NCBI GenBank assembly: GCA_963747235.1
Contig: CAVVEU010000031.1
Location: 1-64,000 of the forward strand
Direction of reading: 5' to 3'
Origin: an uncultured Candidatus Rokubacteria bacterium
GTDB lineage: Bacteria > Methylomirabilota > Methylomirabilia > Rokubacteriales > CSP1-6
DNA: 64,000 nucleotides
Part shown: positions 2,645-64,000 of the stretch, piece by piece
Layout of the letters: the number at the start of each line of letters is the position of its first letter
Position numbering within the stretch: the first letter of the stretch is position 1
The notes under the pieces: model-generated
The model's database searches: none
What the model saw: only the letters and a program-made list of their open reading frames with translations
Told to the model about the DNA's origin: nothing
Made by a program: the position numbers and the translations under genes

Positions 2645-3358
2645 ATGCCCGCCGTTTTCGTCCACGGAGTCCCCGACACGCACCGCGTCTGGACCGCTCT
2701 CCTCTCGCGTCTCGCCCGGAAGGACGTCGTCACGCTGTCTCTGCCGGGATTCGGCTGCCCGGCGCCCGAGGGCTTCGACGCGACCAAGGAAGCCTACGTG
2801 GACTGGCTCCTGGGTGAGCTGGCGCGCCAGTCGGGCCCCATCGACCTCGTCGGCCACGACTGGGGCGCGCTGCTCGTGGTGCGCGCGGTGTCGCTGCGCC
2901 CCGAGGCGGTGCGGAGCTGGACGGTAGGCGGGGCGCCGCTCGATCCCGACTACGAGTGGCACCCGGCCGCGCGCGCCTTCCAGACGCCGGGCATGGGCGA
3001 GCGGGTGATGGAGAGCATGACGCCCGAGGCGCTGCAGCAGGCCCTGGCCGCCGCGGGGGTGCCGGCCGCCGACGCGGCGGAGGCGGGCCGTCAGGTGGAT
3101 CCCACCATGAAGCGCTGCATCCTCGCGCTCTATCGCTCGGCGGTGCACGTGGGGACGGAGTGGACCGACGACCTGCGGCGTGTCACCGCGCCGGGTCTCG
3201 TGCTCTGGGGCGAGCAGGATCCCTACGCGGCGCCGCGCTTCGGCGCGCGCCTGGCCGAGCGCACCGGCGCGCGGTTCGTCTCGTTCCCGAGCTGCTCGCA
3301 CTGGTGGCAGCTCGAGCGGCCGGACGACGTGGCCGACGAGCTCCGGCGTTTCTGGTAG
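2645..3358 (+). CDS. Alpha/beta fold hydrolase (epoxide hydrolase/dehalogenase-like)
   Basis: FVHGVP, SLPGFG, GHDWG nucleophile elbow, C-terminal HWWQLERP. Promoter-like TTGACT(2606)-17-TAGGAT(2629). Confidence 0.85.
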   Translation: MPAVFVHGVPDTHRVWTALLSRLARKDVVTLSLPGFGCPAPEGFDATKEAYVDWLLGELARQSGPIDLVGHDWGALLVVRAVSLRPEAVRSWTVGGAPLDPDYEWHPAARAFQTPGMGERVMESMTPEALQQALAAAGVPAADAAEAGRQVDPTMKRCILALYRSAVHVGTEWTDDLRRVTAPGLVLWGEQDPYAAPRFGARLAERTGARFVSFPSCSHWWQLERPDDVADELRRFW

Positions 3359-3428
3359 TATCCCCGGCGGTAGCTCCCGAGCCCGACTCCCCGCCCCAGC
3401 ACATGCCCACCCGGCAAGGAGGCCCGAG

Positions 3429-4876: not shown

Positions 4877-4911
4877 CCCCTCACCCTGCCCTCTCCCCTC
4901 AGGGGAGAGGG
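4877..4911 (+). repeat. BoxC/REP-like palindromic element, copy 1
   Basis: CCCCTCACCCTGCCCTCTCCCCTCAGGGGAGAGGG between convergent genes. A near-identical inverted copy lies at 52881-52915. Confidence 0.8.
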
Positions 4912-4926
4912 GGTGGGGGGCAGTTG

Positions 4927-5889
4927 CTAGCTCACTCCCGGCTCGAGCAGGGTGAGCGTGCCCGCGTCGGCGTCGAGCTCGGCCAGGCAGCCGAGCGGCA
5001 GTGTGGTCTGGTCCTCGATGTGGCCGAGCATGATGCCGGAGATCGCGGGCACGCCCAGGGCCCGGCAGCGCTCGGCCAGGATGTCGTCGAGCGGGCGATT
5101 CTGCAGGAAGAACGGCGACGGATTGCAGTTCGTGAATTTCCCGAACGCCACTCCCGCGACGCCCGCCAGCGCGCCCGACAGCCAGAGCTGGGTCAGCATC
5201 CGGTCGATACGGTAGTACGCCTCCTCGACGTCCTCCAGAAACAGGATCGCGCCGCGCAGGTCGGGGAAGTAGGGTGTGCCGCAGAGGTGCGACATCAGGC
5301 AGAGGTTGCCGCCGAGCAGGCGCCCGCGCGCCTTGCCGGGCACCAGCGTGGCCACCCGGTTCTCCCAGTCCACCCGGCCCTCGGCCCGCTCGAAGGGCGG
5401 GGGCCCGCCGAGGCGCACCGGCGTCTCCCCGGTCCACAGCACGCGCTTGAGCTCGCCCAGCGAGTAGGGCGTGAACGCGCGAAAGGCCACCGGCCCGTGG
5501 AAGGTGACGAGGCCGGCGTGGCGGTGGATCGCCACGTGGAGCGCGGTGATGTCGCTGTAGCCGATCAGCGCCTTGGGCTTGCGCTGCATGAGCGCGTAGT
5601 CGAGCGCGGGCAGGATCCGAGACGCCCCGTAGCCGCCCCGCACGCACCAGATCGCGTCCACCCCGTCGTCGGCGAACATGCCGTTGAGGTCGTCGGCGCG
5701 GGCGGCGTCGGAGCCGGCCAGGTAGCCGTCGCGATCGAAGAGATGCGCGCCGGGCTTCACCTTGAAGCCGAGCGACTCGATCGTGTCGATGGCGAAGCGG
5801 ATGCGCTCGGGCTCGTTGGGCGCCGCCGACGGCGCCACCATCCCGATGGTCTGACCCGGAGCGAGGCGGCGCGGGCGAAGGAGTGGCAT
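4927..5889 (-). CDS. LD-carboxypeptidase (peptidase S66, LdcA/MccF-like)
   Basis: RGGYG, GYSDIT (Ser), LLGGNL, ILFLEDV (Glu), GHIE (His). Confidence 0.9.
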   Translation of the reverse strand: MPLLRPRRLAPGQTIGMVAPSAAPNEPERIRFAIDTIESLGFKVKPGAHLFDRDGYLAGSDAARADDLNGMFADDGVDAIWCVRGGYGASRILPALDYALMQRKPKALIGYSDITALHVAIHRHAGLVTFHGPVAFRAFTPYSLGELKRVLWTGETPVRLGGPPPFERAEGRVDWENRVATLVPGKARGRLLGGNLCLMSHLCGTPYFPDLRGAILFLEDVEEAYYRIDRMLTQLWLSGALAGVAGVAFGKFTNCNPSPFFLQNRPLDDILAERCRALGVPAISGIMLGHIEDQTTLPLGCLAELDADAGTLTLLEPGVS

Positions 5890-14319: not shown

Positions 14320-15612
14320 GTGACCGGAGTCCTTCCCGCTCCACCCCACGAATCCGACGACGGCGAATCCTTCGCGCGCCGTCACGTCCGCCACAACGTC
14401 GTCACCCTGAGCGTCGATCTCGGCCTCTTCCTCGTCGGGCTATCGTTCGCGTCGCAGAGCACGATCCTGCCTGCCTTCGCCGCCCATCTGGGCGCCTCCA
14501 ACCTCGTCATCGGCGCGATCCCGGCGCTGATGACGCTCGGATGGAATCTCCCGTCGCTGTTCTGGGCGGGCTACACCGAATCGCTCGCCCGGAAGCTGCC
14601 CTTCGTGTTGCGCTACACGATCTGGGAGCGGCTGCCGTTCCTCGGCCTGGCCGCGGTCGCGTTCTTCCTGGCCCGCCCGGCGCCCGGGCTCTCGCTCGCT
14701 CTGATGCTGGGCATGCTGCTCCTGATCACCGGCGTGGGCGGCGTCCTGATGCCGGCGTGGATGGACATCGTGGCCCGCGCGGTGCCGGTGGGACTCCGCG
14801 GACGCTTCTTCGCCGTCTCGAACCTGCTGGGCGGCGCGGGCGGCCTGCTGGGCAGCGTGCTCGTCGCGTGGGTGCTCGCGCGGATGCCGGCGCCCGACGG
14901 CTACGCGGTGTGCTTCCTCATGGCGGCGCTGTGCGTGGGCCTGTCCTACGCGGCGCTCGCGCGGGTGCGCGAGCCGCGGGCGCCCGCGGTGGAGGGCGCT
15001 CCGCCGCTCGGCGCCTACCTGCGGCGCGCCGGCCGGCTGCTGCGCGAGGATCGGAACCTGCGCTGGTTCCTCCTCTCCCGCGCGCTCATCTACGTCGGCA
15101 TGATGGCGTCCGGGTTCTACACCGTGTTCGCCCTCCGCCACTACGCGGCGCCGGACTGGGCGGTGGGCGTGTTCACCACGGCCCTCCTCGCGGGGCAGAT
15201 GACCGGCAACCTGGCGCTGGGCGCCCTCGCCGATCGCGCCGGGCATCTGGCGTCGCTCGGCATCGGGGCGGGGGCGCTCCTGCTCGCCAATGTCGCGGCG
15301 CTGCTCGTGCCGTCGCTCGAGCTGTTCATCGTCGTGTTCGCCCTGCAGGGCGTCCACCTGGCCGCGATGAACGTCTCGGGCCTGAGCGTGCTGCTCGAGT
15401 TCGCGCCGAGCCCGGCCGCGCGGCCCACCTACGTGGGGCTCGGCACCACCCTGCTGACGCCGGTGGCCTTCGGCGCCCCGCTCATGGCCGGGCTCATGGC
15501 CGACGCCCTCGGGTTTCCGGCGGTGTTCGTGGTGGCGGCGCTGGGGAGCCTGGCCGGGCTCGCCCTGCTGCTGGGACGGGTGCGCGAGCCCCGGCGGCCC
15601 GCCCTGCCGTGA
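14320..15612 (+). CDS. MFS transporter
   Basis: About 12 hydrophobic segments, GALADRAGH loop motif. Confidence 0.85.
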   Translation: MTGVLPAPPHESDDGESFARRHVRHNVVTLSVDLGLFLVGLSFASQSTILPAFAAHLGASNLVIGAIPALMTLGWNLPSLFWAGYTESLARKLPFVLRYTIWERLPFLGLAAVAFFLARPAPGLSLALMLGMLLLITGVGGVLMPAWMDIVARAVPVGLRGRFFAVSNLLGGAGGLLGSVLVAWVLARMPAPDGYAVCFLMAALCVGLSYAALARVREPRAPAVEGAPPLGAYLRRAGRLLREDRNLRWFLLSRALIYVGMMASGFYTVFALRHYAAPDWAVGVFTTALLAGQMTGNLALGALADRAGHLASLGIGAGALLLANVAALLVPSLELFIVVFALQGVHLAAMNVSGLSVLLEFAPSPAARPTYVGLGTTLLTPVAFGAPLMAGLMADALGFPAVFVVAALGSLAGLALLLGRVREPRRPALP

Positions 15613-53142: not shown

Positions 53143-56100
53143 TGAAGGACTTGCTGGCGGCCGCGCCCGATGATCGGGCGCGCTGCGGCGAGCTCAAGCG
53201 GCCTGGGCTTCGCGGATCCCGCCGCGGCGCTCCGCAATCTGCACGCGCTGACGCCCACGCCGCGCGAGGCCGAGCTGCTCGCGCCCGCGCTGCCCCGCCT
53301 GCTCGCCGAGCTGGCCGCGGCCCCCGATCCGGACATGGCGCTCAACAATCTCGAGCGCCTGGCCTCCCAGGGCGAGCTCGCCGCGTTCCTCCGCCTGCTG
53401 GGCGCGCATCCGGGCGCCATCCCGCTGCTCGCGCGCCTGGGCGGCACCAGCCAGTTCCTGGCCGACACCCTTCGCCGCTATCCCACGCTGCTGCCCTGGC
53501 TGCTCGAGCCGCGGACGATGCGGCAGTGGCTCGCCGATGAGCTCACGGAGGATCTCGCCGCGAGCCTCAAGGCCGTCGAGCGGCCCGAGGCGCGGCTCAA
53601 CGCGCTCCGCCGCTTCAAGTACCGCCAGCTCCTGCGCATCGGCTGCCGCGACATCCTGGGCGACGCCGATCTCACCGTGACCACCGAGGAGCTGTCCCAC
53701 ATGGCCGACGTGTGCCTGGCCGCGGCCTGGGACTGGGCCCGGGAGCGGCTCGAGCGGCTCTACGGGGCGCCGATCGGCGCCGACGGCGCGCCCACCGGCC
53801 TCGCGGTCATCGGCATGGGCAAGCTCGGCGGCGAGGAGCTCAACTACTCCTCGGACATCGATCCGATCTTCGTCTACGGCGAGGACGGGGAGACCGCGGG
53901 CGGCGAGTCGGGCCGCATCGCCAACGGCGAGTTCTTCACCCAGGCGGTCCGGTCCATCGTGGACACGCTCGAGTCGGTCACCGAGGAGGGCCACGTCTTC
54001 CGCGTGGACCTGCGCCTGCGCCCCGAGGGACGCTCGGGCGCGCTCATCCAGTCGGTGGCCGGGTATCGCCACTACTTCGCGGACCGCGCCGAGCTCTGGG
54101 AGCGCCAGGCCCTCATCAAGGCGCGCGCCTGCGCGGGGGACGAGGCGGTGGCCGCGCGCTTCTTCGAGGCGGTGCGCCCGTTCGTCTACCGGCCCGGGCT
54201 CGACCCGGCCATCGTGCGCGCGGTGCGCGAGATGAAGGCCCAGATCGACCGCTCGCTCCGGGGCAAGGACGCCTCGCACCGCAACGTCAAGCTCGGTCGC
54301 GGCGGCATCCGCGAGGTGGAGTTCCTCGTCCAGGCGATGCAGCTCCTCTACGGCGGCGACGACCCGTGGCTGCGCGAGCGGAACAGCCTGCGCGCGATCT
54401 TCCGGCTCACCGAGCGGGGCTACCTGTCGCACGCCCTCGGGCGCGAGCTGGGCGACGCGCTCGTCTATCTGCGCACCGTCGAGCACCGCCTGCAGCTCCT
54501 CCACGAGTTCCAGACCCACACGCTCCCGGAGGAGCCGCGCGCGCTCGGGCTCCTGGCCCGCCGCATGGGCGTGGCGCAGCCGCCCGCCGCGGCGGCGCGG
54601 CGCTTCATGATCGAGCACCGGCGCGTGACCGCGCTGGTGCACCGGGCCTTCCGCGAGTTCTTCGCCGCGCCGCCCGCCGCCGCGGCGCGCCCGCTGCGCA
54701 TCCCGAGCTACACCGCGCTCAAGGCGACCGGCTTCACCGACCCGGACCGCGCGCGCCAGAATCTCCGGCTGGTCCTCGAAGGCCGCCCGCTGATCCCGTA
54801 CCCGGCCGCGGCCGGCCGCGCGGTGGCCCGCCTCTTCCCGGTGCTGCTCGACGCGCTCTGGCAGAGCCCGGACCCCGACGAGGCGCTGGGCCAGTTCGAG
54901 CGCTTCGTCTCTGCGGCGGGACCGAGGACGGCCTACCTCGAGCTCCTGGCCGACCGGCCGGATCTGCTCGCGAACCTGGTCCGGCTCTGCGCGCGGGGCG
55001 AGCTGCTGACCGAGCTCCTGATCGCCCAGCCGGAGCTGCTCAACGGGCTGGCGAGCTCGGAGACGTTCGCGGCGCGCAAGCGCGCGCCCGACTTCCGGCG
55101 CGAGCTGGCACCTGTGCTCGCGCCGCGCCTGGCGATCGCCGAGCGCGCGGACATCCTGCGGCGGCTCAAGCAGGCGCAGGAGCTCGGGATCATCTGGCGC
55201 ATGCTGCTCGGGGTGACGGACGCGGAGCGCTTCTCGCTCGAGATGACCGCGCTCGCCGAGGCCACCCTCGCGGTCGCGTGGATGCTGGCCCTCGAGCAGA
55301 CGGTGGCCCAGCACGGCGGCGTCCCGCGCGACGCGAAGGGCCGGCTCGTGCCCGCCGCGATCATCGGCCTCGGCAAGTTCGGCGGCCGCGAGCTCACCAC
55401 CGGCTCGGATCTCGACCTCTTCGTGGTGTACGGCGGCGCCGGGTTCACCGACGGAGATCCGCCGGTCGAGGCGCACGTGTTCTACGACCACGCGGTGGAG
55501 GCGCTGAGCGGCCTCCTGAGCGACATCACCGCGGCCGGCGTGGCCTTCGCGGTGGACCTACGCCTGCGCCCCGGCTCCAAGGGCAGCGGCTTTGCCTCGA
55601 GCGACGACGCGCTCGAGCGCTACTACCGCGAGTGGGCGGACCCGTGGGAGCGCCAGACCCTCACCCGCGCCCGGCTGGTGGGCGGCGATCCGCGCCTCGG
55701 CCGCGCGGTGCGCCGGCGCATCCGCGGGCTGCTCTACGGGCCCGAGGCGCCGCCGCCCGACCTCAAGGAGATGCGCGCCCTGCGCGAGCGCATGGAGCGC
55801 GAGCTGGGCAAGGAGACGCCCGGCCGGTTCCACGTGAAGTTCGGGCGCGGCGGGCTCGTGGACGTGGAGTTCATCACCCAGGCCATGCAGATGCGCCACG
55901 GGGCCCGGCATCCGGGGTTGCGTCGGGCCAACACGCTCCACGCCATCCGCGAGATCGCGGCGGCCGGGCTGCTCCCGGCGGAAGACTGCGCCACGCTCGC
56001 CGAGCAGTACCGCGTCCTGCGCCGCGTGTCGCTCGGGCTCCGGCTCTTCGGCACGCGGCCGTCGGACACCCTGGAGCTGGCGGGCCCGAACCCGGCCCGG

Positions 56101-56205
56101 CTCGCCAAGACCCTGGAGTATCCGTCGCGGAAGGAGTTCCTGGAGGACTACCGCCGCCGCACCGCGTGGGTGCGCGCGCTCTACGACCGCGTCGTGCCGA
56201 AGTGA
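53142..56205 (+). CDS. glnE: Bifunctional glutamine synthetase adenylyltransferase/adenylyl-removing enzyme (probable frameshift near 53200)
   Basis: Two nucleotidyltransferase domains (GMGKLGGEELNYSSDID, GKFGGRELTTGSDLD), VDLRLRP twice, KLGRGGIREVEF. Confidence 0.95.
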
Positions 56206-56256
56206 GCCGGCCGCGTCAGGCGCCCGGCTCGCGGGTGATGCGCGCGCCGCGAGCGC
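56144..56256 (+). repeat. Left copy of ~115 bp direct repeat (glnE 3' end + vestigial murA 3' end)
   Basis: Matches 61836-61951. Identical blocks are 56168-56208 = 61860-61900 and 56215-56249 = 61908-61942. Confidence 0.95.
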
Positions 56257-56590
56257 CTGCGGCGCGACGTCGCGTCGCGCCCGGGGGCGCGAGCGAGTGG
56301 TCGCACACGGACCGATGGCGCCCGAGCCCACGGCCTCGACGGCGCCGCTGGCCGCAGGGCCGGCCGGCACCGACCGGTTCACTTACCGGCGGCGGTGTGC
56401 CGACCATAGCATGCCGCTCAGCGGGCGTGGTCGGCGCGCGAGGAGGCCGCTAATGTGCGCTGTGGTATCACACGCCAGGACGACGGCTGCCGGAGGGCGG
56501 GCATGTTGCCTATCCTCGGTTCTGATCTCGCCCGACGGGATCACGTGGAGCCGGAGGACCCCACCAACTGACGGGTTCGAACCAGAAGCC

Positions 56591-57844
56591 TCACGCCCTG
56601 GACTCTCCGAGCGTGAAACAGAATGTCGCCCCCTTTCCCTTTTCGGCCTCGGCCCAGATGCGGCCGCCGTGACGATTCACGATGCGCTGCACGATGGCCA
56701 GGCCGACGCCCGTGCCTTCGAACTCGTCCTGGCGATGCAGCCGCTGGAATACGCCAAACAGTTTCTCGGCGTGCTTCATGTCGAAACCGACGCCGTTGTC
56801 CTTCACATAGATCGCTTGCTCGCCGTTCTCCAAGCGGCAGCCGATCTCGATTTCCGGGCGCGGCTGCTTGCGCGTGTACTTGAGTGCGTTGCCGAGCAGG
56901 TTGACGAACACCTGCTCGAGCAGCGCCGAGTCGGCGCGGCACTCCGGAAGCTCCCCGACAACGACCTCGGCCTTGCGGTTGGCGATATCGTCGCGAAACG
57001 TCTTCAGGCATTGGTTCACGAAGCTTTTCAGGTCGATCGTCCGTTTGGCGAGCGGTTGGCGCGCCGTCCTCGCGAAGTTGAGCAAATCGTCGATAAGCCG
57101 GGTCATCTGCTGCGCGCCCTCGCGCACTAGGCCGAGATGGCGCCGGCCCTCGGCAGGCAGCGAATCGGCATGGTCGCACAATACGATGCTGGAGAAACCG
57201 GCGATCGCACGCAGCGGCGCGCGCAGATCGTGCGACACGGAATAGGAGAAAGCTTCGAGTTCCTTGTTTGCGCTCTCCAGCTCCGCCGTGCGCTGCTGGA
57301 CACGGGACTCCAGGCACCGGTTCAGTTCGACAATGTCCCCGTGTGCCGCCCGAAGCGCATCGAGCGCCTTCTGCAGCTCGGCGTTCTTTTCCTCCAGCTT
57401 GCGCACCAGCGCCTCGTTGTATTGCCCGAGGACATACGTCTCGTCCCGTCCGGCGGCCGGATGCGGCGAGGTGTCGCGCGTTTTCTGCGCGGCTTCGCGC
57501 AGCGCTTCGAGGATCACCGGCATGGGAGCCGGCTTGATGATGTATTGATCGGCTCCTACGGATTGCGCCAGCTCGCGGTCCTCCGACGAATTGTAGGTGC
57601 TGGTGTAGAAGACGAACGGGAGCGAGCGGAGCTTGCCGAGCTTGCGGATTTCCAGGCATAGCCGGAAGCCGTCCATGTTCGGCATCAGAATGTCCGAAAT
57701 GACCGCATCCACAGATTCACGCTCGAGCAACCGCAGCGCCTCGACGCCGTCAGAGGCGTCGAGCACGGTATGCCCCTCGGCCTCGAGCTGCACGCGGAGC
57801 AGCTTCAGGTTGGTCTGGTTATCGTCGACGATGAGGAGATTCAC
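56591..57844 (-). CDS. Receiver domain - histidine kinase hybrid
   Basis: LIVDDN, SDILMP, then SYSVSHDLRAPL, NLLGNALK, DNGVGF, GTGVGLAIV. Confidence 0.92.
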   Translation of the reverse strand: MNLLIVDDNQTNLKLLRVQLEAEGHTVLDASDGVEALRLLERESVDAVISDILMPNMDGFRLCLEIRKLGKLRSLPFVFYTSTYNSSEDRELAQSVGADQYIIKPAPMPVILEALREAAQKTRDTSPHPAAGRDETYVLGQYNEALVRKLEEKNAELQKALDALRAAHGDIVELNRCLESRVQQRTAELESANKELEAFSYSVSHDLRAPLRAIAGFSSIVLCDHADSLPAEGRRHLGLVREGAQQMTRLIDDLLNFARTARQPLAKRTIDLKSFVNQCLKTFRDDIANRKAEVVVGELPECRADSALLEQVFVNLLGNALKYTRKQPRPEIEIGCRLENGEQAIYVKDNGVGFDMKHAEKLFGVFQRLHRQDEFEGTGVGLAIVQRIVNRHGGRIWAEAEKGKGATFCFTLGESRA

Positions 57845-57857
57845 TGCGTCCGGGGGT

Positions 57858-58229
57858 CTAGTTGATCTTGTTCTGCGTTGTCTCCTCCAGCTGTTTCGAC
57901 AAGCTTCGGGTATCGATGGGCTTGGTGATGCACGCATCGCAGCCGGCTGCCGCAATGTCCTCGCGGCGGTAGCGGTCGGTGTAGGCCGTGACCGCAACGA
58001 TCGGGATCAGGCTGGTGGCAGGGTGTGCCTTGAGCTGGCGGACGAGCGTCAATCCATCCATGCCCGGCAGTTGCAAATCCAGCAGGATGACGTCGGGCTT
58101 ATCCGTCGCGATGGCGTCCACGGCCTCCTCGGCCGACGTTCTCTCGCGCACGATGTGTCCGCTCATCTTCAGCACTTCGCCCATCAGTTTCAAGTCGGTC
58201 GGATTGTCTTCGATGACCAGGACTTTCAC
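57858..58229 (-). CDS. Single-domain response regulator (DivK-like)
   Basis: LVIEDN, LLDLQLPGMDG, ITKPIDTR. Confidence 0.9.
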   Translation of the reverse strand: MKVLVIEDNPTDLKLMGEVLKMSGHIVRERTSAEEAVDAIATDKPDVILLDLQLPGMDGLTLVRQLKAHPATSLIPIVAVTAYTDRYRREDIAAAGCDACITKPIDTRSLSKQLEETTQNKIN

Positions 58230-58241
58230 GTCGGTCTCTCC

Positions 58242-58622
58242 CTATGTGCCCTTGTTGTCCCGCAACGACTGCGCCACCCGGTGCGGCAAGGTGCGCGTAT
58301 CGATCGGTTTGGTGATGTAGCCGTCGCAGCCCGCGTCGTACGCCTTCTGTTCGTCGCCGGTCATCGCAAAGGCCGTCAGGGCGATCACCGGGATGTGCTT
58401 TAGCCGTGTGTCGGCCTTCAGCTTGCGCGTGAGGGTCAGGCCGTCCATTCCCGGCAGGGCGATATCCATGAGAATCAGGTCGGGCTTGGTGTGCTCGAGG
58501 AGTTCCTGCGCCGATTCGGCATCCGCCGCCCTTACGACGGCGTAGCCCTCGGCCTCCAGGACGTCGGAAGCCAGTTTCAGGTTGACCGGATTGTCGTCGA
58601 CGATGAGGATGCGGGCGGTCAT
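58242..58622 (-). CDS. Single-domain response regulator (DivK-like)
   Basis: LIVDDN, LMDIALPGMDG, TAFAMTGD, ITKPIDTR. Confidence 0.92.
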   Translation of the reverse strand: MTARILIVDDNPVNLKLASDVLEAEGYAVVRAADAESAQELLEHTKPDLILMDIALPGMDGLTLTRKLKADTRLKHIPVIALTAFAMTGDEQKAYDAGCDGYITKPIDTRTLPHRVAQSLRDNKGT

Positions 58623-60559
58623 GCGGGCATCAGTGGGTTAAGGTGGTCAGGATCTGTGTCAGCTACGAGCGGCAGGATCACCGAAAAGGTGCTCCCCTTG
58701 CCCGGCTCGCTTTCGACGGAGACGCTGCCGCCCTGGAGCTCGACGAGCTTGCGCGTGAGCGCGAGCCCCAGGCCCGTGCCCCCGTGGCGACGCGCCAGGC
58801 GCGATTCGAGCTGCTGGAACTGCGCGAACAGTCTGCCGATGTCTTCGGGCTTGATCCCGATGCCGGTATCGCGCACCTGCAGTGTCAACAGTCCTGGATC
58901 GCGCTGACCGACGATGATGTCCACCTGCCCCCCGTCGTCGGTGAATTTCACGGCGTTGGAGAGCAGGTTGAAGAGCACCTGCTTGAACTTCTGCCGGTCG
59001 AGCGTGACGCTGGTGATCGATGCGGCGATGTGTCTGCGGACGGCGATCTTCTTCTTCTCCGCCATCTGCGAGAGGACGGAGCAGACTTCCTCGACGGTCT
59101 TGGGCAGCGCAAAGGCTTCGGGGGACAGCTCCATCTTCCCCGCCTCCACCTTCGACAGGTCGAGGACGTCGTTGATCAGGTGCAGCAGGTGCCGCCCGCT
59201 GTTCAGGATGTCGTTCAGGTAGTCCTTCTGCTTGGCATTCAGTGGTCCTGGTTTCTCGTCGAAGAGGAACTCGGAGAAGCCGATGATGCCGTTCAAGGGC
59301 GTGCGCAATTCATGACTCATGTTTGCGAGGAACTCGCTCTTCATGCGGTTCGATTCCTGGATGCGCAGGTTCTGGGCTTCGAGCTGAATACTGTTGACCC
59401 GCATCTCCCGCATCCTTCGCTCCTCGGTTCGGTCGCGAAAGACCAGGACGACGCCGCGGATCTCTCCGGTCGGATCCCGGATGGGTGCGCCGCTGTCCGC
59501 GATCGGTCGCGCGGTGCCGTCGCGGGAACACAGGACCGTGTGGTTCGCAAGGCCCACGACCACGCCTTCGCGCAGGACACGGACTACCGGACTCTCTACC
59601 GGACGGCGAGTGTCCTCATCGAGAATGCGAAAGACCTCGGCGAGCGCCCGCCCCTTTGCCTCTTCGAGGGGCCAGCCGGTCAGTTGCTCGGCAACCGGAT
59701 TCATTCGGATGACCCGCCCCTCGATGTTTGTTGCGATCACCGCATCGCCGATGCTGTTGAGGGTGATGGCTAGATTCTGTTCGCTCTCCCGCAGCGCTTC
59801 CTCGGCGCGCTGTCGTTCCGCGATTGTTCCCTTCAACGTGCCCGTCATTTCGTCGAACGCGCGCGAAAGGTCCCCGATCTCGTCCCTGGCGGTAACGTCG
59901 AGCCGAAAATCGAGGTTGCCGGCGCCTACGATCGCGGTGCCTTCGCGCAGGTGTGCGAGCGGCCGGGTTACGCTTCTGAGTGTTAGAAGCAACATCGCGG
60001 CGACGGCCAACACGACGATGCCGCCGGACGACACCACCGCGAAACGTGCCCGTTGTTGAGCCTCCAGGACACCCGCCCGGCTGCGCTCGGCGAGACCCTC
60101 CGCGTCGGAGATCATCGTCTGCGTCTTGTTCGTGATCTGCCCGGTCAGCCTGGTCTCCAACTCCGTGAGCGCCGCGCTGTGTTCCCTGTGGTGTTCACGG
60201 TTGTGGTGGTTCGTCACGAGTTGGGCGAATAGAGTGCTGACGCTGTCGTGGGTGTGGCGGAGCCCGTCTACGATTGCTTGGCCCTCGGTGCCGGTAAACT
60301 CCGTGGAGTTCGCAAGCAGTGTCGAGAGCGACGCGTGCCTCAGCCGCCACTGGGCCTGCGCCCGCTCTTCGTGGTGCAGCACATATTCGAGCGTCAGGTA
60401 TCTGACGGCGGTGGCTCCTTTGAGCACTTCCGCGGCCACCTCGTTCTTGGTGAGCTCTTGCCTCACCTGCTGCGTGGTGGATAACAGCACCGCGGAGATG
60501 ACGGCAACGGCTCCCACGGAGAGCAGTCCGGCAAGCTTGAGACGGGAGGAAATTCTCAT
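58619..60559 (-). CDS. Membrane sensor histidine kinase (2 TM, HAMP, PAS, HisKA, HATPase)
   Basis: DEIGDLSRAFDEM, SIGDAVIAT..MNPVAE, FLANMSHELRTPLN, NLLSNAVKFT, GTGLGLAL. Confidence 0.93.
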   Translation of the reverse strand: MRISSRLKLAGLLSVGAVAVISAVLLSTTQQVRQELTKNEVAAEVLKGATAVRYLTLEYVLHHEERAQAQWRLRHASLSTLLANSTEFTGTEGQAIVDGLRHTHDSVSTLFAQLVTNHHNREHHREHSAALTELETRLTGQITNKTQTMISDAEGLAERSRAGVLEAQQRARFAVVSSGGIVVLAVAAMLLLTLRSVTRPLAHLREGTAIVGAGNLDFRLDVTARDEIGDLSRAFDEMTGTLKGTIAERQRAEEALRESEQNLAITLNSIGDAVIATNIEGRVIRMNPVAEQLTGWPLEEAKGRALAEVFRILDEDTRRPVESPVVRVLREGVVVGLANHTVLCSRDGTARPIADSGAPIRDPTGEIRGVVLVFRDRTEERRMREMRVNSIQLEAQNLRIQESNRMKSEFLANMSHELRTPLNGIIGFSEFLFDEKPGPLNAKQKDYLNDILNSGRHLLHLINDVLDLSKVEAGKMELSPEAFALPKTVEEVCSVLSQMAEKKKIAVRRHIAASITSVTLDRQKFKQVLFNLLSNAVKFTDDGGQVDIIVGQRDPGLLTLQVRDTGIGIKPEDIGRLFAQFQQLESRLARRHGGTGLGLALTRKLVELQGGSVSVESEPGKGSTFSVILPLVADTDPDHLNPLMPA

Positions 60560-60569
60560 TGGGGCGGTC

Positions 60570-61586
60570 TCAATGGATGACCGTGACCGCGGCGGGCGCC
60601 ACTGCTTCCAACGCATCGAGATAGAAGTAGTTCAGGTAGTTCGGCATATCGGTCCTGGCGGTGAGCTTGTGCTTTATCGCCCATCGCGTTTCGTCCTCCA
60701 GGGCGAGCACCAGGCTTTGGCCGAGGGTAATCGCGAATCGGTACGATGCCCAGGAGTCCTTCAACTGTGTCGCGTCTGTCCGGATCGCCTTGGCAACGAT
60801 TTCGCGCGCCGCATCCGGCGCGTCCCTGCAGAACCGTGCGCCTCGAATCAAGGCCCGGAGGACTCGCTTTATGGTCTCGGGATGGCTGACGACGTAGTCC
60901 CGTGTTCCGCCGAGGATGAACACCGGATCGTAGACGCCCGCGCCTGAGAAGGTCGCGGCGTTGGCGCCGAGCTGTTCTTTCAACGTGCCGACATACGGCT
61001 CCCAGGTCGAGGCGGCGTCGATGTCTCCGTTCGCCAGTGCCTTGGAGAGCTGCTCCGGCTTGACGTCGAGCACCGTCACGTCACGTGCCGACAGCCGCTC
61101 CCGTATGAGAAACGCGTCGAGTAAGAAATGGCCGGACGTGCCCAATGTAACGCCGATGCGTTTGCCCTTCAGGCTGGCAGGGGCGGCAATGCCCTTATCC
61201 CTTCTGCCGACGATTCCTTGACCTTGTTCTGTCGTGGAGATTGCCGCTACGATCGATACCGGCTGGCCGTTCATCACCGCGAACATGATTGGAATGTCGA
61301 GCATGCTCCCCAGATCGGCCTCTCCCTGTAGGGCGGAGTACAAAGCGGCCTTTCCGGTGCTGTGAGGCTGAAGAGCGACGAGGAGGCTTTCGCGCGAGAA
61401 ATAGCCTTGCTGCTGCGCCACGAATATCGGGCACGATCCTACATATTCGGTGGTCGCAATTGTCACCGGCTCGAGGGGACCCCGCGGCGGTGACGGTGAC
61501 GTCCGGTCGATCCACGCGTAACCTCCGACGACCAGCGCGGCCACAACTAGGAGGCCGGCCATCGCGGAAAGCGAGGGTGTTTCCAC
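60570..61586 (-). CDS. NrtA/SsuA/THI5-like substrate-binding protein
   Basis: N-terminal TM/signal, FVAQQQGYF, LKGKRIGVTLGT, IDAASTWEP. Confidence 0.85.
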   Translation of the reverse strand: METPSLSAMAGLLVVAALVVGGYAWIDRTSPSPPRGPLEPVTIATTEYVGSCPIFVAQQQGYFSRESLLVALQPHSTGKAALYSALQGEADLGSMLDIPIMFAVMNGQPVSIVAAISTTEQGQGIVGRRDKGIAAPASLKGKRIGVTLGTSGHFLLDAFLIRERLSARDVTVLDVKPEQLSKALANGDIDAASTWEPYVGTLKEQLGANAATFSGAGVYDPVFILGGTRDYVVSHPETIKRVLRALIRGARFCRDAPDAAREIVAKAIRTDATQLKDSWASYRFAITLGQSLVLALEDETRWAIKHKLTARTDMPNYLNYFYLDALEAVAPAAVTVIH

Positions 61587-61835
61587 TGAACAGCCTTGTC
61601 GTCTTTTGTGTCATCGTGAATCCGCCCCAACCCGCTAAGACTGCTTGAGCCGCCTAGCGGCACCGTGTAGTTCGTACCCGGAGCGTGGTGCCCGCGATGC
61701 ACCCGCATTCAAGGTTGGCGGCAAGCGAATATGCTCACTATTGGACCAAAGGCCAATGCGCCGGAGCCGTGGCATCGGCTCCTGAGGCGGCCAGCGTCCG
61801 GGTCTGGGGAGGTTACATCACGGTGACGGGATGCA

Positions 61836-61951
61836 AGGACTACCACCGCCGCACCGTGCGGGTGCGCGCGCTCTACGACCGCGTCGTGCCGAAGTGAGCC
61901 CGGCCGGGTCAGGCGCCCGGCTCGCGGGTGATGCGCGCGCCGAGCGAGCGC
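61836..61951 (+). repeat. Right copy of direct repeat (vestigial glnE 3' end + functional murA 3' end)
   Basis: Translates as DYHRRTVRVRALYDRVVPK*, versus GlnE DYRRRTAWVRALYDRVVPK*. Confidence 0.95.
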
Positions 61952-63203
61952 AGGCGCTCGTCGATCCGCTCGTAGCCGCGGTCCACCTGGTGCGCGTTCA
62001 TGATCGAGGAGGTGCCGCGCGCGCACAGCGCGGCGCCGATGAGGGCCATGCCCGCGCGGATGTCGGGGGAGACCATCGGCGCGGCCCGCAGCTCGGTGGG
62101 GCCGACCACCACCGCCCGGTGCGGATCGCACAGGATGATCCGGGCGCCCATCGCGATGAGGCTGTCCACGAAGAAGAGGCGGCTCTCGAATAGCTTCTCG
62201 TGGATGAGCACGGTCCCGCGGCTCTGGGTCGCCAGCACGAGCGCGAGGGAGGTCAGGTCGGCGGGGAAGCCCGGCCACGGCGCGTCGTCCACCTTGGAGA
62301 TCGCCCCGTCCGCGTCGGCCGCGACCGTCGAGCTCCTGCGGGCCGGGGACGACCAGCGTGGTGCCGTCGAGCGAGGTCTCGACGCCCAGCCGCCGGTAGG
62401 CCAGGCGGATCATGCGCAGATCCTCCGGGATCACGTCGCGGATGCGGAGGTCGCCGCCGGTCATCGCGGCCAGGGCCACGAAGGAGCCGATCTCGATGTG
62501 ATCGGGGCCCAGGCGGTGCCGGCCGGGCCCGAGCTCGCGGACGCCCTGGATGCGGAGCTGGTTCGTCCCGATGCCGCTGATCCGGGCGCCCAGCGTGTTG
62601 AGGAAGCGGCACAGGCCCTGGACGTGCGGCTCGCTGGCCGCGTTCAGGATCACGGTCTCGCCCTCGGCCAGCACCGCGGCCATCACCGTGTTCTCGGTGC
62701 CGGTCACGCTCATCTCGTCCAGGAAGACCTCGGTGCCCCGGAAGCGGCCCTCGAGCGTCAGGTGGAGCGACGGGCCGGACGCGACGCGCGCGCCCAGCTC
62801 GCTCAGCGCGAGCAGGTGGGTGTCGAGCCGCCGCCGGCCGATCCGATCGCCGCCGGGAGGCGGCAGCACCGCCTGGCCCGTCCGTGCGAGCAGGCCCGGC
62901 GCGAGCAGCACGGAGCCGCGGAGCTGCGACATCACCGCGGGGTCGGGGTCGCGGCCCTTGAGCGTGCTCGCGTCCAGGCGCACCGTGCCGTGGTCGTCCA
63001 CCTCCACCCGCACGCCCAGGTGGCGGAGCCCCTCGAGCAGCGCGGTCACGTCCCGGATGCGGGGCACGTTGTCCACGACGACCTGGACCCGCGACGAGCA
63101 GGCAGGCCGCGAGCACGGGCAGGGCCTCGTTCTTGTTGCCGGCCGGCGTCACCGTCCCCCGCAGGGGATGGCCGCCCTCCACCAGGAAGCGATCTCCGGT
63201 CAC
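61909..63203 (-). CDS. murA: UDP-N-acetylglucosamine 1-carboxyvinyltransferase (frameshifts near 63090 and 62333)
   Basis: [60 protein letters not shown]. Confidence 0.93.
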
Positions 63204-63299
63204 GTGAGCCTCCTCGTCAATACTAACCGAGCGTGCGGACATTAAAGGCACGGGAGAGGCGGTCGCCCGGAGGCCGGTGTATGATCCGGGCGAGTCCGC

Positions 63300-64000
63300 A
63301 TGACCGAGCGCTTGTTCATCCTCGACGGCCCCGGCTTCCTCTTTCGCGCTTACCACGCGATCCCGTTCCTCTCCACCTCGAAGGGCGTGCCGAGCCACGC
63401 GGTCTTCGGCATGTCCACGATGCTGTGGAAGCTGCTGCGCGAGGACAATCCGGAGTACTTCGCGGTCGCGTGGGACCCGCCCGGCCCGACGTTCCGGGAG
63501 GAGAAGTTCGCGGCCTACAAGGAGACCCGGGCCCCCACGCCCGACGATCTCCGCACCCAGATCCCGCTGGTGAAGACGCTCTTCGAGGCCCTGCGCCTGC
63601 CGCTCCTGGAGGTGCCGGGCTTCGAGGCCGACGACGTGCTGGGCACCGTGGTGGACCGCACCCGCGATCTTCCCATCGACCTCGTCCTGGTCACCTCCGA
63701 CAAGGACATGCTCCAGCTCGTGAGCCCGCGGGTGCGCGTGTTCTCGACCACCGGCCGGGGCGGGGACCGCGTGATCTTCGACGAGGCCGCGGTGAAGGCC
63801 AAGTGGGGCGTGGAGCCCGCGCAGATCCCCGACATCCTGGCCCTCATGGGCGACTCCATCGACAACATCCCGGGCGTGCCGGGCGTGGGCGAGAAGACCG
63901 CGGCCAAGCTGATCGGCCAGTTCGGCGGCGTGGCCCGCCTCTACGAGAACCTCTCGCTGGTGCCGGGCAAGCTGCGCGAGACGCTGGCCGCCAACCGCAA
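63300..64000 (+). CDS. polA: DNA polymerase I, 5'-3' exonuclease domain (3' truncated by window)
   Basis: [54 protein letters not shown]. Confidence 0.9.

Follow-up and report, generated by a model that had tools for sequence, protein, structure and literature searches.

Duplicated gene ends at the glnE/murA junction of an uncultured Rokubacteria genus point to an integrase-free hotspot for gene gain and loss

The 64,000-nt stretch of DNA analysed here (the window), from an uncultured Candidatus Rokubacteria bacterium, carries an island of about 5.6 kb between two convergent housekeeping genes, glnE and murA. The island is bordered by two direct repeats of ~115 nt, each of which holds the 3′ ends of both genes: the end that belongs to the complete gene, termed the working end, and the end of the other gene that is stranded on the far side of the island, termed the orphan end. 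On balance, these repeats are best interpreted as the eroded remains of a duplicated junction, located at an insertion hotspot that operates without an integrase.

The genome that holds the window (G000) is an assembly of 5.57 Mb in 42 contigs, 88% complete, from an uncultured genus of ~71% GC, and the contig carrying the island (C31) is 147 kb long. glnE and murA were located in 40 relatives and the junctions were then compared; the genus set comprises 21 genomes, G000 included. Coordinates of all features are collected in Table 1.

The glnE/murA site across the genus

The repeat was delimited by a repeat finder run on the window, by blastn of the whole G000 assembly and by global alignment of the two copies. 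It pairs 56144–56208 with 61836–61900 (95% identity) and 56207–56256 with 61900–61949 (92%), and the blastn match between the copies is 93.97% identical over 116 columns (E 1e-43). A third copy is absent from the blastn search of the whole assembly, so that the search for further copies of the island ends, suggested in an earlier sequence-only reading of the window, returns these two junction copies only. In the global alignment, the copies of 113 and 116 nt differ by three substitutions in the glnE part; their spacers are set apart by one substitution and one 1-nt indel, and their murA parts by a 2-nt indel. Identical runs of ~35–40 nt are still uninterrupted. The stop codon of working glnE (TGA) occupies 56203–56205, and that of working murA (TCA) occupies 61909–61911. 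The same earlier reading had described a ~115-bp repeat with both gene ends in each copy, three substitutions in the extra glnE end, a 2-nt deletion in the extra murA end, complete 3′ ends on both neighbouring genes and a palindrome in the right spacer, and each of these details is borne out. The palindrome, 10 nt long, appears to be incidental because it is missing from the left copy and from all other aligned junction sequences. Single-base indel errors occur in this assembly, and the small indels that separate the two copies may be artefacts of the same kind.

Across the genus, the site is empty in 11 genomes, occupied in nine and enlarged by a small insert in one. In the empty genomes (G002, G003, G004, G006, G007, G008, G009, G010, G012, G017 and G019), glnE and murA are directly convergent. 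The left flank of the G000 island aligns to all 11 of them as far as ~56199–56256 (to 56256 in six of the 11), and the right flank aligns from ~61836–61854 onward; judged by these alignments, an empty site holds just one copy of the repeated segment. The occupied genomes (G000, G001, G005, G011, G013, G014, G015, G018 and G020) carry cargo that is unrelated from one to the next, and G015 has a racemase and the sequence adjacent to the right junction in common with G013. The possibility that the junction is a hotspot with exchangeable cargo, raised by the sequence-only reading together with the comparison of relatives, is supported by these counts: empty sites and different cargo are both found, and no one cassette is common to all. 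A third state of the site is observed in G016 (C251 ~1–270, L027), in which a ~230-nt spacer insert with long terminal inverted repeats, similar to a miniature inverted-repeat transposable element, is present with no duplication of the gene ends.

Pfam scans covered 13 open reading frames (ORFs) of the G000 region and 55 island ORFs of eight relatives (36 + 19). No integrase or transposase is found among the 13, which yield only GlnE, MurA, two-component and solute-binding domains, and no recombinase, integrase or transposase family is found among the 55. A search of the G000 genome for recombinases returned five PF00589 hits, all on other contigs (C8, C18, C14 and C2), and aragorn detected no tRNA or tmRNA at the ends of the island. 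The G000 island appears to have no mobility functions of its own, and the glnE/murA junction is read, with somewhat better than even confidence, as a hotspot at which one clade gains and loses genes without the help of an integrase.

The extents of the orphan ends are given in coordinates of an empty-site reference, in which the junction lies near 1610–1620. Across the occupied genomes, the orphan murA end ranges from ~20 nt to >220 nt and the orphan glnE end from ~10 to >330 nt; depending on the genome, the left copy ends at 1634–1843 and the right copy starts at 1273–1600. Internal deletions are visualized in the orphans of G001 and G018. Because the lengths differ between genomes and internal deletions occur, the orphan ends are rather more plausibly eroding remnants of longer duplicated segments than fixed attachment sites. 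The earlier proposal that a 5.6-kb insertion had duplicated a ~115-bp target, as in tRNA-targeting islands, is not supported: no fixed extent of the duplication is common to the occupied genomes, unrelated cargo is found beside identical kinds of orphan ends and beside one and the same neighbouring repeat (S, described below), the orphan glnE end of G018 comes from another lineage, and the island is composite. A minimal form of the site is seen on a short contig of a related organism from public run X4, in which an orphan murA end (to 61970) is followed, after 17 nt, by an orphan glnE end that starts at 56144, the same glnE boundary as in G000 and G005.

Trees were built from the 3′ part of glnE and the middle part of murA. 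Eight occupied genomes fall into a single clade, to which G016 is sister (99/96, glnE tree), and the ninth, G018, is placed outside it, beside the empty-site genome G012 (100/99, murA tree). The orphan glnE end of G018 is 95.4% identical to the working glnE of G014, as compared with 85.5% to its own glnE, and carries the terminal codons of the clade, not those of G018. Over the first ~300 columns from the stop, the working murA of G018 is 94% identical to that of G000 and 63–85% identical to that of G012; beyond this point, it is ~96% identical to G012. The ~95-nt orphan murA end of G018 is contiguous with its own glnE, as visualized in a 133-nt identical overlap of two contigs. The glnE orphan, the spacer and the murA 3′ end are of donor type, and the murA orphan, like the glnE that it adjoins, is native. 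The donor-type orphan glnE end, the chimeric murA and the native orphan murA end are together taken to show that an island of the clade entered G018 with a piece of its junction, by a crossover ~300 nt inside murA, and that the native murA end was displaced. A similar, weaker mosaic is suggested for the murA of G000, of which the 400 nt on the island side are 97–99% identical to G014, 94–99% to G001 and 92–96% to G015; further in, G015 is the closest genome in four of the next five 100-nt windows (94–98%).

Composition of the island and its surroundings

The G000 island is a composite of four parts: a 130-nt filler, an S-type repeat, the 5.2-kb cargo and half of an S repeat. The filler has no significant blastn match in the genome or in the loci of relatives. 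S is a dispersed repeat of ~120 nt with sharply conserved ends, unrelated flanks and an internal GTCAC-N-GTGAC palindrome; 13 of the 21 genus genomes contain it, and a single genome has as many as nine hits. The cargo of G000 is bounded exactly by the natural 3′ end of one S copy on one side and by the natural 5′ end of a second copy on the other. Alignment with intact copies on C29, on C2 and in relatives reveals that the left partial copy is without a ~58-nt core of the 5′ half, and a comparable short variant exists in G019. Public-run contigs of relatives join window positions ~56461/56469 directly to ~61769/61786, which constitutes an intact unit of upstream box plus S.

An intact S adjoins the orphan glnE end in G001, G020 and G018, and a remnant does so in G011; G014 is without an orphan glnE end, and its S is ~4.4 kb away from murA. 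S appears to be an old resident of the site, because it adjoins the orphan glnE end beside unrelated cargo in several genomes, and it may supply homology for rearrangements within and between islands. All S copies of G000 are located in island-like DNA, those of C29 within a stretch of 65.7% GC and those of C2 at ~2 kb from both a cluster of tRNA genes and an integrase fragment. This C2 locus, in which the tRNA-His, tRNA-Arg and tRNA-Lys cluster (C2:103531–104124) is followed by a 91-aa tyrosine integrase fragment, by accessory genes and by two S copies, has the look of a tRNA-targeting island in decay. On the island contig of G020 (C38), three S copies (294–369, 3290–3395 and 14905–15012) share one orientation, an arrangement suggesting that S punctuates gene modules within large islands. 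Several S copies are found directly upstream of same-strand genes, including those for a pyridoxal phosphate-dependent enzyme, a PEMT-type methyltransferase, an unknown 360-aa protein and a luciferase-like monooxygenase of G014.

Two candidate functions of S were considered and set aside. As a structured RNA, S has no Rfam match at E up to 1 and a weak consensus fold (RNAalifold, −3.75 kcal/mol), and its covariation in two hand-proposed hairpins is no better than that of shuffles (score reached by 103 of 500). As for a promoter-bearing gene, the box upstream of some S copies is promoter-like by eye (TTGAC, 17 nt, then TAGCAT or TAGGAT), and a promoter scan of window positions 56000–62100, box copy included, found 0 sites.

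The enclosed DNA has a GC content of 63%, as compared with ~74% in the flanks, and the only 1-kb bins below 66% GC in the 64-kb window are the five at 57–61 kb. GC at third codon positions is 0.75–0.87 in the cargo genes and 0.97–0.98 in glnE and murA. The earlier description of this DNA as foreign in codon usage and devoid of an integrase agrees with these values and with the Pfam results. The cargo encodes two kinases (HisKA + HATPase_c) and three receiver domains, and the Pfam scan of the 13 ORFs of the region found no DNA-binding output domain in it. The receiver domain of the hybrid kinase starts at residue 55 of the 468-aa ORF, and the true start of this gene is probably near 57850. At the DNA level, the three receiver domains (57782–58609) are paralogues spaced 385–387 nt apart with 66–73% identity, which suggests that they were produced by tandem duplication within the donor operon.

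A close homologue of the cassette kinase is absent from the 40 relatives (best match ~45%, partial), the best match in species-representative genomes is just 35%, and the best match in a large protein collection is 71% over 70% of the length. The order of the cargo genes is found again on three metagenome contigs of 60.5–60.9% GC, with 53–84% protein identity. No plasmid covers >10% of the cassette, and no donor was identified in the relatives, representative genomes, protein collection, metagenome contigs or plasmids. The recurrence of the gene order on contigs of ~60% GC, together with the absence of homologues from close relatives, makes the cassette look like an operon native to a lineage of ~60% GC.

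Table 1. Features of the G000 island and its neighbours (window positions, unless a contig is named), S repeats and boxes elsewhere, and islands at the same site (orphan ends in empty-site reference coordinates; size is that of the cargo)
Feature	Position	Strand	Size	Remarks
glnE	53170–56205	+	1011 aa	glutamine synthetase adenylyltransferase; intact; Pfam GlnE 2.6e-119, GlnD_UR_UTase 3.3e-45
Left junction copy	56144–56256		113 nt	working glnE end, 10-nt spacer (56206–56215), orphan murA end
Orphan murA 3′ end	56216–56256	-	41 nt	stop and ~13 codons; 2 nt shorter than working copy
Filler	56257–56386		130 nt	79% GC; old, host-like part of island
Upstream box U and partial S	56387–56520	+		first ~10 nt of S joined to 3′ half (S2, 56470–56520)
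Foreign cassette	56521–61768	-	5.2 kb	62.6% GC; five-gene two-component signalling operon
Hybrid receiver-histidine kinase	56591–57997	-	468-aa ORF	REC-HisKA-HATPase_c (Pfam)
Single-domain response regulator RR1	57858–58229	-	123 aa	Pfam Response_reg 8.9e-26
Single-domain response regulator RR2	58242–58622	-	126 aa	Pfam Response_reg 3.7e-31
Sensor histidine kinase	58619–60616	-	665-aa ORF	HAMP-PAS-HisKA-HATPase_c (Pfam); database copy 646 aa
Periplasmic solute-binding protein, NMT1/THI5-like	60570–61586	-	338 aa	Pfam NMT1 6.3e-29, NMT1_2 1e-25
5′ half of S (S1)	61769–61835	+		natural 5′ end; cut off against orphan glnE end
Right junction copy	61836–61951		116 nt	orphan glnE end, 11-nt spacer (61898–61908), working murA end
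Orphan glnE 3′ end	61836–61897	+	62 nt	~19 codons and stop; 3 substitutions vs working copy
murA	61909–63201	-		UDP-N-acetylglucosamine 1-carboxyvinyltransferase; Pfam EPSP_synthase in two frames; reads in three frames
Other S copies, G000	C29:30800–30910; C29:31895–32009; C2:106109–106227; C2:105790–105869			last copy weaker
S copies, relatives	loci L039–L068			
Box copies	56387–56450; C29:31817–31904; C2 ~106030–106100; G019:C57 ~4900–4960 (L066)			
G000 site	orphan murA to 1656; orphan glnE from 1545			
G001 site	orphan murA to 1710, pieces 1866–1901 and 2741–2819; orphan glnE from 1512			orphan murA an internally deleted near-full copy; cargo cytochrome c, MscS channel, collagen-like/OmpA proteins
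G005 site	orphan murA to 1634; orphan glnE from 1546		3 kb	methyltransferase and unknowns
G011 site	orphan murA to 1843; orphan glnE from 1512		1.5 kb	AHSA1-family protein
G013 site	orphan murA essentially nothing; orphan glnE from 1565		15.6 kb	racemase, monooxygenase, aldolase, peptide ABC transporter, others
G014 site	orphan murA essentially nothing; orphan glnE absent			luciferase-like monooxygenases, Uma2 nuclease, L-PSP
G015 site	orphan murA essentially nothing; orphan glnE from ~1600			
G018 site	orphan murA to at least 1721; orphan glnE 1273–1424 and 1576 onward		2 kb	PIG-L-family protein
G020 site	orphan murA to 1713; orphan glnE from 1512		>15 kb	cyclases, glycosyltransferase, Usp, citrate-type transporter

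The frame of the G000 murA is broken by two single-base insertions, near 63087 and 62327, which are private to G000 in an alignment with seven relatives, and both extra bases are missing from all related contigs of the public runs. Other low-contig assemblies also contain private murA insertions (one in G013 and two in G008), and five many-contig assemblies contain none. An essential gene for a class-I aminoacyl-tRNA synthetase (G000 C8:737555–739185) is in three frame-shifted pieces in G000 and split in G013, and is unbroken in G001 and G015. The private nature of the insertions and the similarly split synthetase gene indicate that the murA frameshifts are most likely assembly indel errors, and on these grounds and the likeness of the other low-contig assemblies, a true murA pseudogene was rejected. 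A murA search gave at least two matches in 19 of the 20 other genus genomes, 18 of which have a listed second copy at ~40–42% identity. In G000, the only copy found is the one beside glnE; a second may simply be missing from an assembly that is 88% complete.

Origin of the duplicated junction

In the favoured interpretation, islands would pass from one relative to another as linear molecules, with one end held by homology to murA and the opposite end attached by an illegitimate join, a process known as homology-facilitated illegitimate recombination; alternatively, once an island exists and both flanks match, an ordinary double crossover in the flanks would suffice. Each illegitimate join would strand a resident gene end as an orphan, later deletions would trim the orphans, and the neutral DNA between them would then tolerate further insertions. 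In G000, an operon from the ~60% GC lineage would have lodged between two partial S copies. Either a tandem duplication on the spot or the illegitimate joining of homologous DNA from outside could have produced the first duplication. End-joining is available to G000, because Ku is encoded. Microhomology, as seen by eye only, is possible as CTCGAC at the joint between S and the orphan glnE end in G001 and G020 and as GG.ATC in the left S copy of G000.

Several observations weigh against this interpretation. Homology-facilitated illegitimate recombination is orders of magnitude rarer than homologous recombination, according to a passage in PMC5361080. The orphan glnE ends of G000 and G005 start within 2 nt of each other beside dissimilar sequences, which is unexpected from random erosion, and both partial S copies of G000 break at the same internal position of S, which hints at a specific cut. 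(Site-specific cutting was set aside as the cause of this shared breakpoint; S variants composed of the promoter-like box plus the 3′ half occur elsewhere.) The orphan ends of G000 are too alike to the working ends, with a 2-nt gap in murA and three differing positions in glnE, for donor and recipient to be assigned, and the mosaic in its murA is an impression gained from sliding windows. In addition, contigs of the four best public runs were aligned to 55500–63300, and none of them crosses either border of the island. These contigs are short and of low depth, and the lack of any empty-site or circular joint among those listed is uninformative either way; the island interior is partly covered by short contigs of one run, without differences.

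A RecA-driven cassette of the Campbell type is a doubtful alternative, in which recombination between the repeats frees a circle with one junction and, after transfer, a single crossover re-inserts it at the junction of any relative, regenerating the repeats without an integrase. Clean excision by recombination between the repeats, as foreseen in the sequence-only reading, is possible in principle. Such a cassette would explain cargo flanked by direct repeats of a homologous junction and the duplication of both gene ends in one event; identical runs are still left in the repeats, and the ~5% divergence between the copies resembles that among clade members. Under this model, however, the orphan murA end should be no shorter than the donor tract. 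The orphan measures ~95 nt in G018, against a tract of ~300 nt, and 41 nt in G000, against a suggestive tract of ~400 nt, and extra deletions would be needed in both. Moreover, nearly every genome has its own extent of duplication, which one propagating circle does not explain. A related proposal, of marginally lower probability, is a self-addressed integrase-free cassette, in which a RecA-released junction circle re-inserts by one crossover into any relative that possesses the junction and S repeats are the joints at which cargo modules are swapped.

As doubtful as the Campbell-type cassette is a purely local origin, in which one ancestral tandem duplication of at least 1.5 kb provided a neutral joint, end-joining captured foreign DNA there and deletions trimmed the orphans. 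The grouping of eight of the nine occupied genomes in one clade and the presence of Ku are in line with this model, as are the orphan murA pieces of G001, which come as close as ~95 nt to the murA start, and the orphan glnE end of G018, which extends ~330 nt upstream of the stop. Boundaries are also common to subsets of genomes (1512 in G001, G011 and G020; 1545/1546 in G000 and G005). The model is silent, however, on how cargo is exchanged, and the island of G018, outside the clade and with a demonstrably foreign orphan glnE end, is not local. It is compatible with the favoured interpretation as the source of the first duplication.

It is unlikely that the island is a decayed or trans-mobilised site-specific element, for which the repeats, or S, would be attachment sites of a tyrosine or serine recombinase encoded elsewhere. 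No recombinase family is found in the scanned ORFs of the nine islands, the genomes carry unrelated cargo, the repeats vary in extent, and orphans are internally deleted. Repeats that restore both gene ends do resemble the attL and attR sites of islands at gene 3′ ends, and of the five integrase-family hits elsewhere in the genome, one is the fragment ~2 kb from the C2 copies of S. The att-like reading fails because a site-specific recombinase would not give variable orphan extents, whereas erosion would. With respect to S, the break shared by both partial copies lies next to the GTCAC-N-GTGAC palindrome; other truncated copies, however, end at variable positions, short S variants are natural, and S has no integron attC-like core, as judged by eye on the alignment.

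An assembly chimera, in which a repeated sequence led to the island being wrongly joined into C31, is very improbable: the lack of border-crossing contigs in the four public runs and the indel errors of the assembly would fit, but orphan ends lie on both sides of the cargo on single contigs in the independent assemblies G011, G013 and G005, C31 is 147 kb long, and the orphan copies differ from the working ones, which a repeat-collapsing assembler would not create.

Comparison with known systems

The 3′ end of a tRNA or protein gene is the target of genomic islands and prophages that bring a replacement end with them. Similar to these elements, the glnE/murA island is flanked by direct repeats, and its target genes keep complete 3′ ends. 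The main differences are that it is without an integrase, the length of the repeat varies, two genes are “restored” and the orphan ends decay.

The glnE/murA site is more reminiscent of hotspots that are free of mobile-element genes, which, according to Oliveira, Touchon, Cury and Rocha (2017, PMC5635113), diversify by homologous recombination in the flanking core genes, where recombination is in excess. As in those hotspots, one pair of core genes encloses accessory genes that differ between related genomes, empty sites occur, no integrase or transposase is found, and recombination tracts are present in the flanking murA, clear in G018 and suggestive in G000. Unlike the hotspots described there, the glnE/murA site keeps orphaned 3′ ends of both flanking genes. 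Because a plain double crossover in the flanks leaves no orphaned ends, at least some of the events here would have been joined illegitimately.

Strings of orphaned 3′ regions in Rhs, contact-dependent inhibition (CDI) and type VI secretion system (T6SS) effector-immunity loci are proposed, in a passage of Kirchberger et al. (2017, PMC5361080), to be left by homology-facilitated illegitimate recombination; the primary papers cited there are de Vries and Wackernagel 2002, Prudhomme et al. 2002, and Meier and Wackernagel 2003. Similar to the loci in that account, the incoming end is anchored by homology (here in murA), the resident 3′ segment is moved downstream and retained as an orphan instead of being replaced, and repeated events build a mosaic. 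The glnE/murA site differs in its housekeeping anchor genes, in the facing orphans of two convergent genes and in its arbitrary cargo, and its illegitimate joints were inspected for microhomology by eye only. The site is thus placed as a further case of a known kind of integrase-free hotspot, one with orphaned gene ends, and not as a new mobile element.

For annotation, direct repeats that “restore” gene ends are not enough evidence for a site-specific element. In low-contig metagenome assemblies, neither frameshifts nor small indels should be taken as biology, and the frameshifts of G000 are best treated as probable assembly errors. For this uncultured soil and sediment lineage, the junction offers a clean natural example of accessory genes gathering at one address without a dedicated mobility enzyme. 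The orphaned ends of both housekeeping neighbours record the recombination history of the site, and G018 in particular documents the passage of an island from one lineage to another with part of its address attached.

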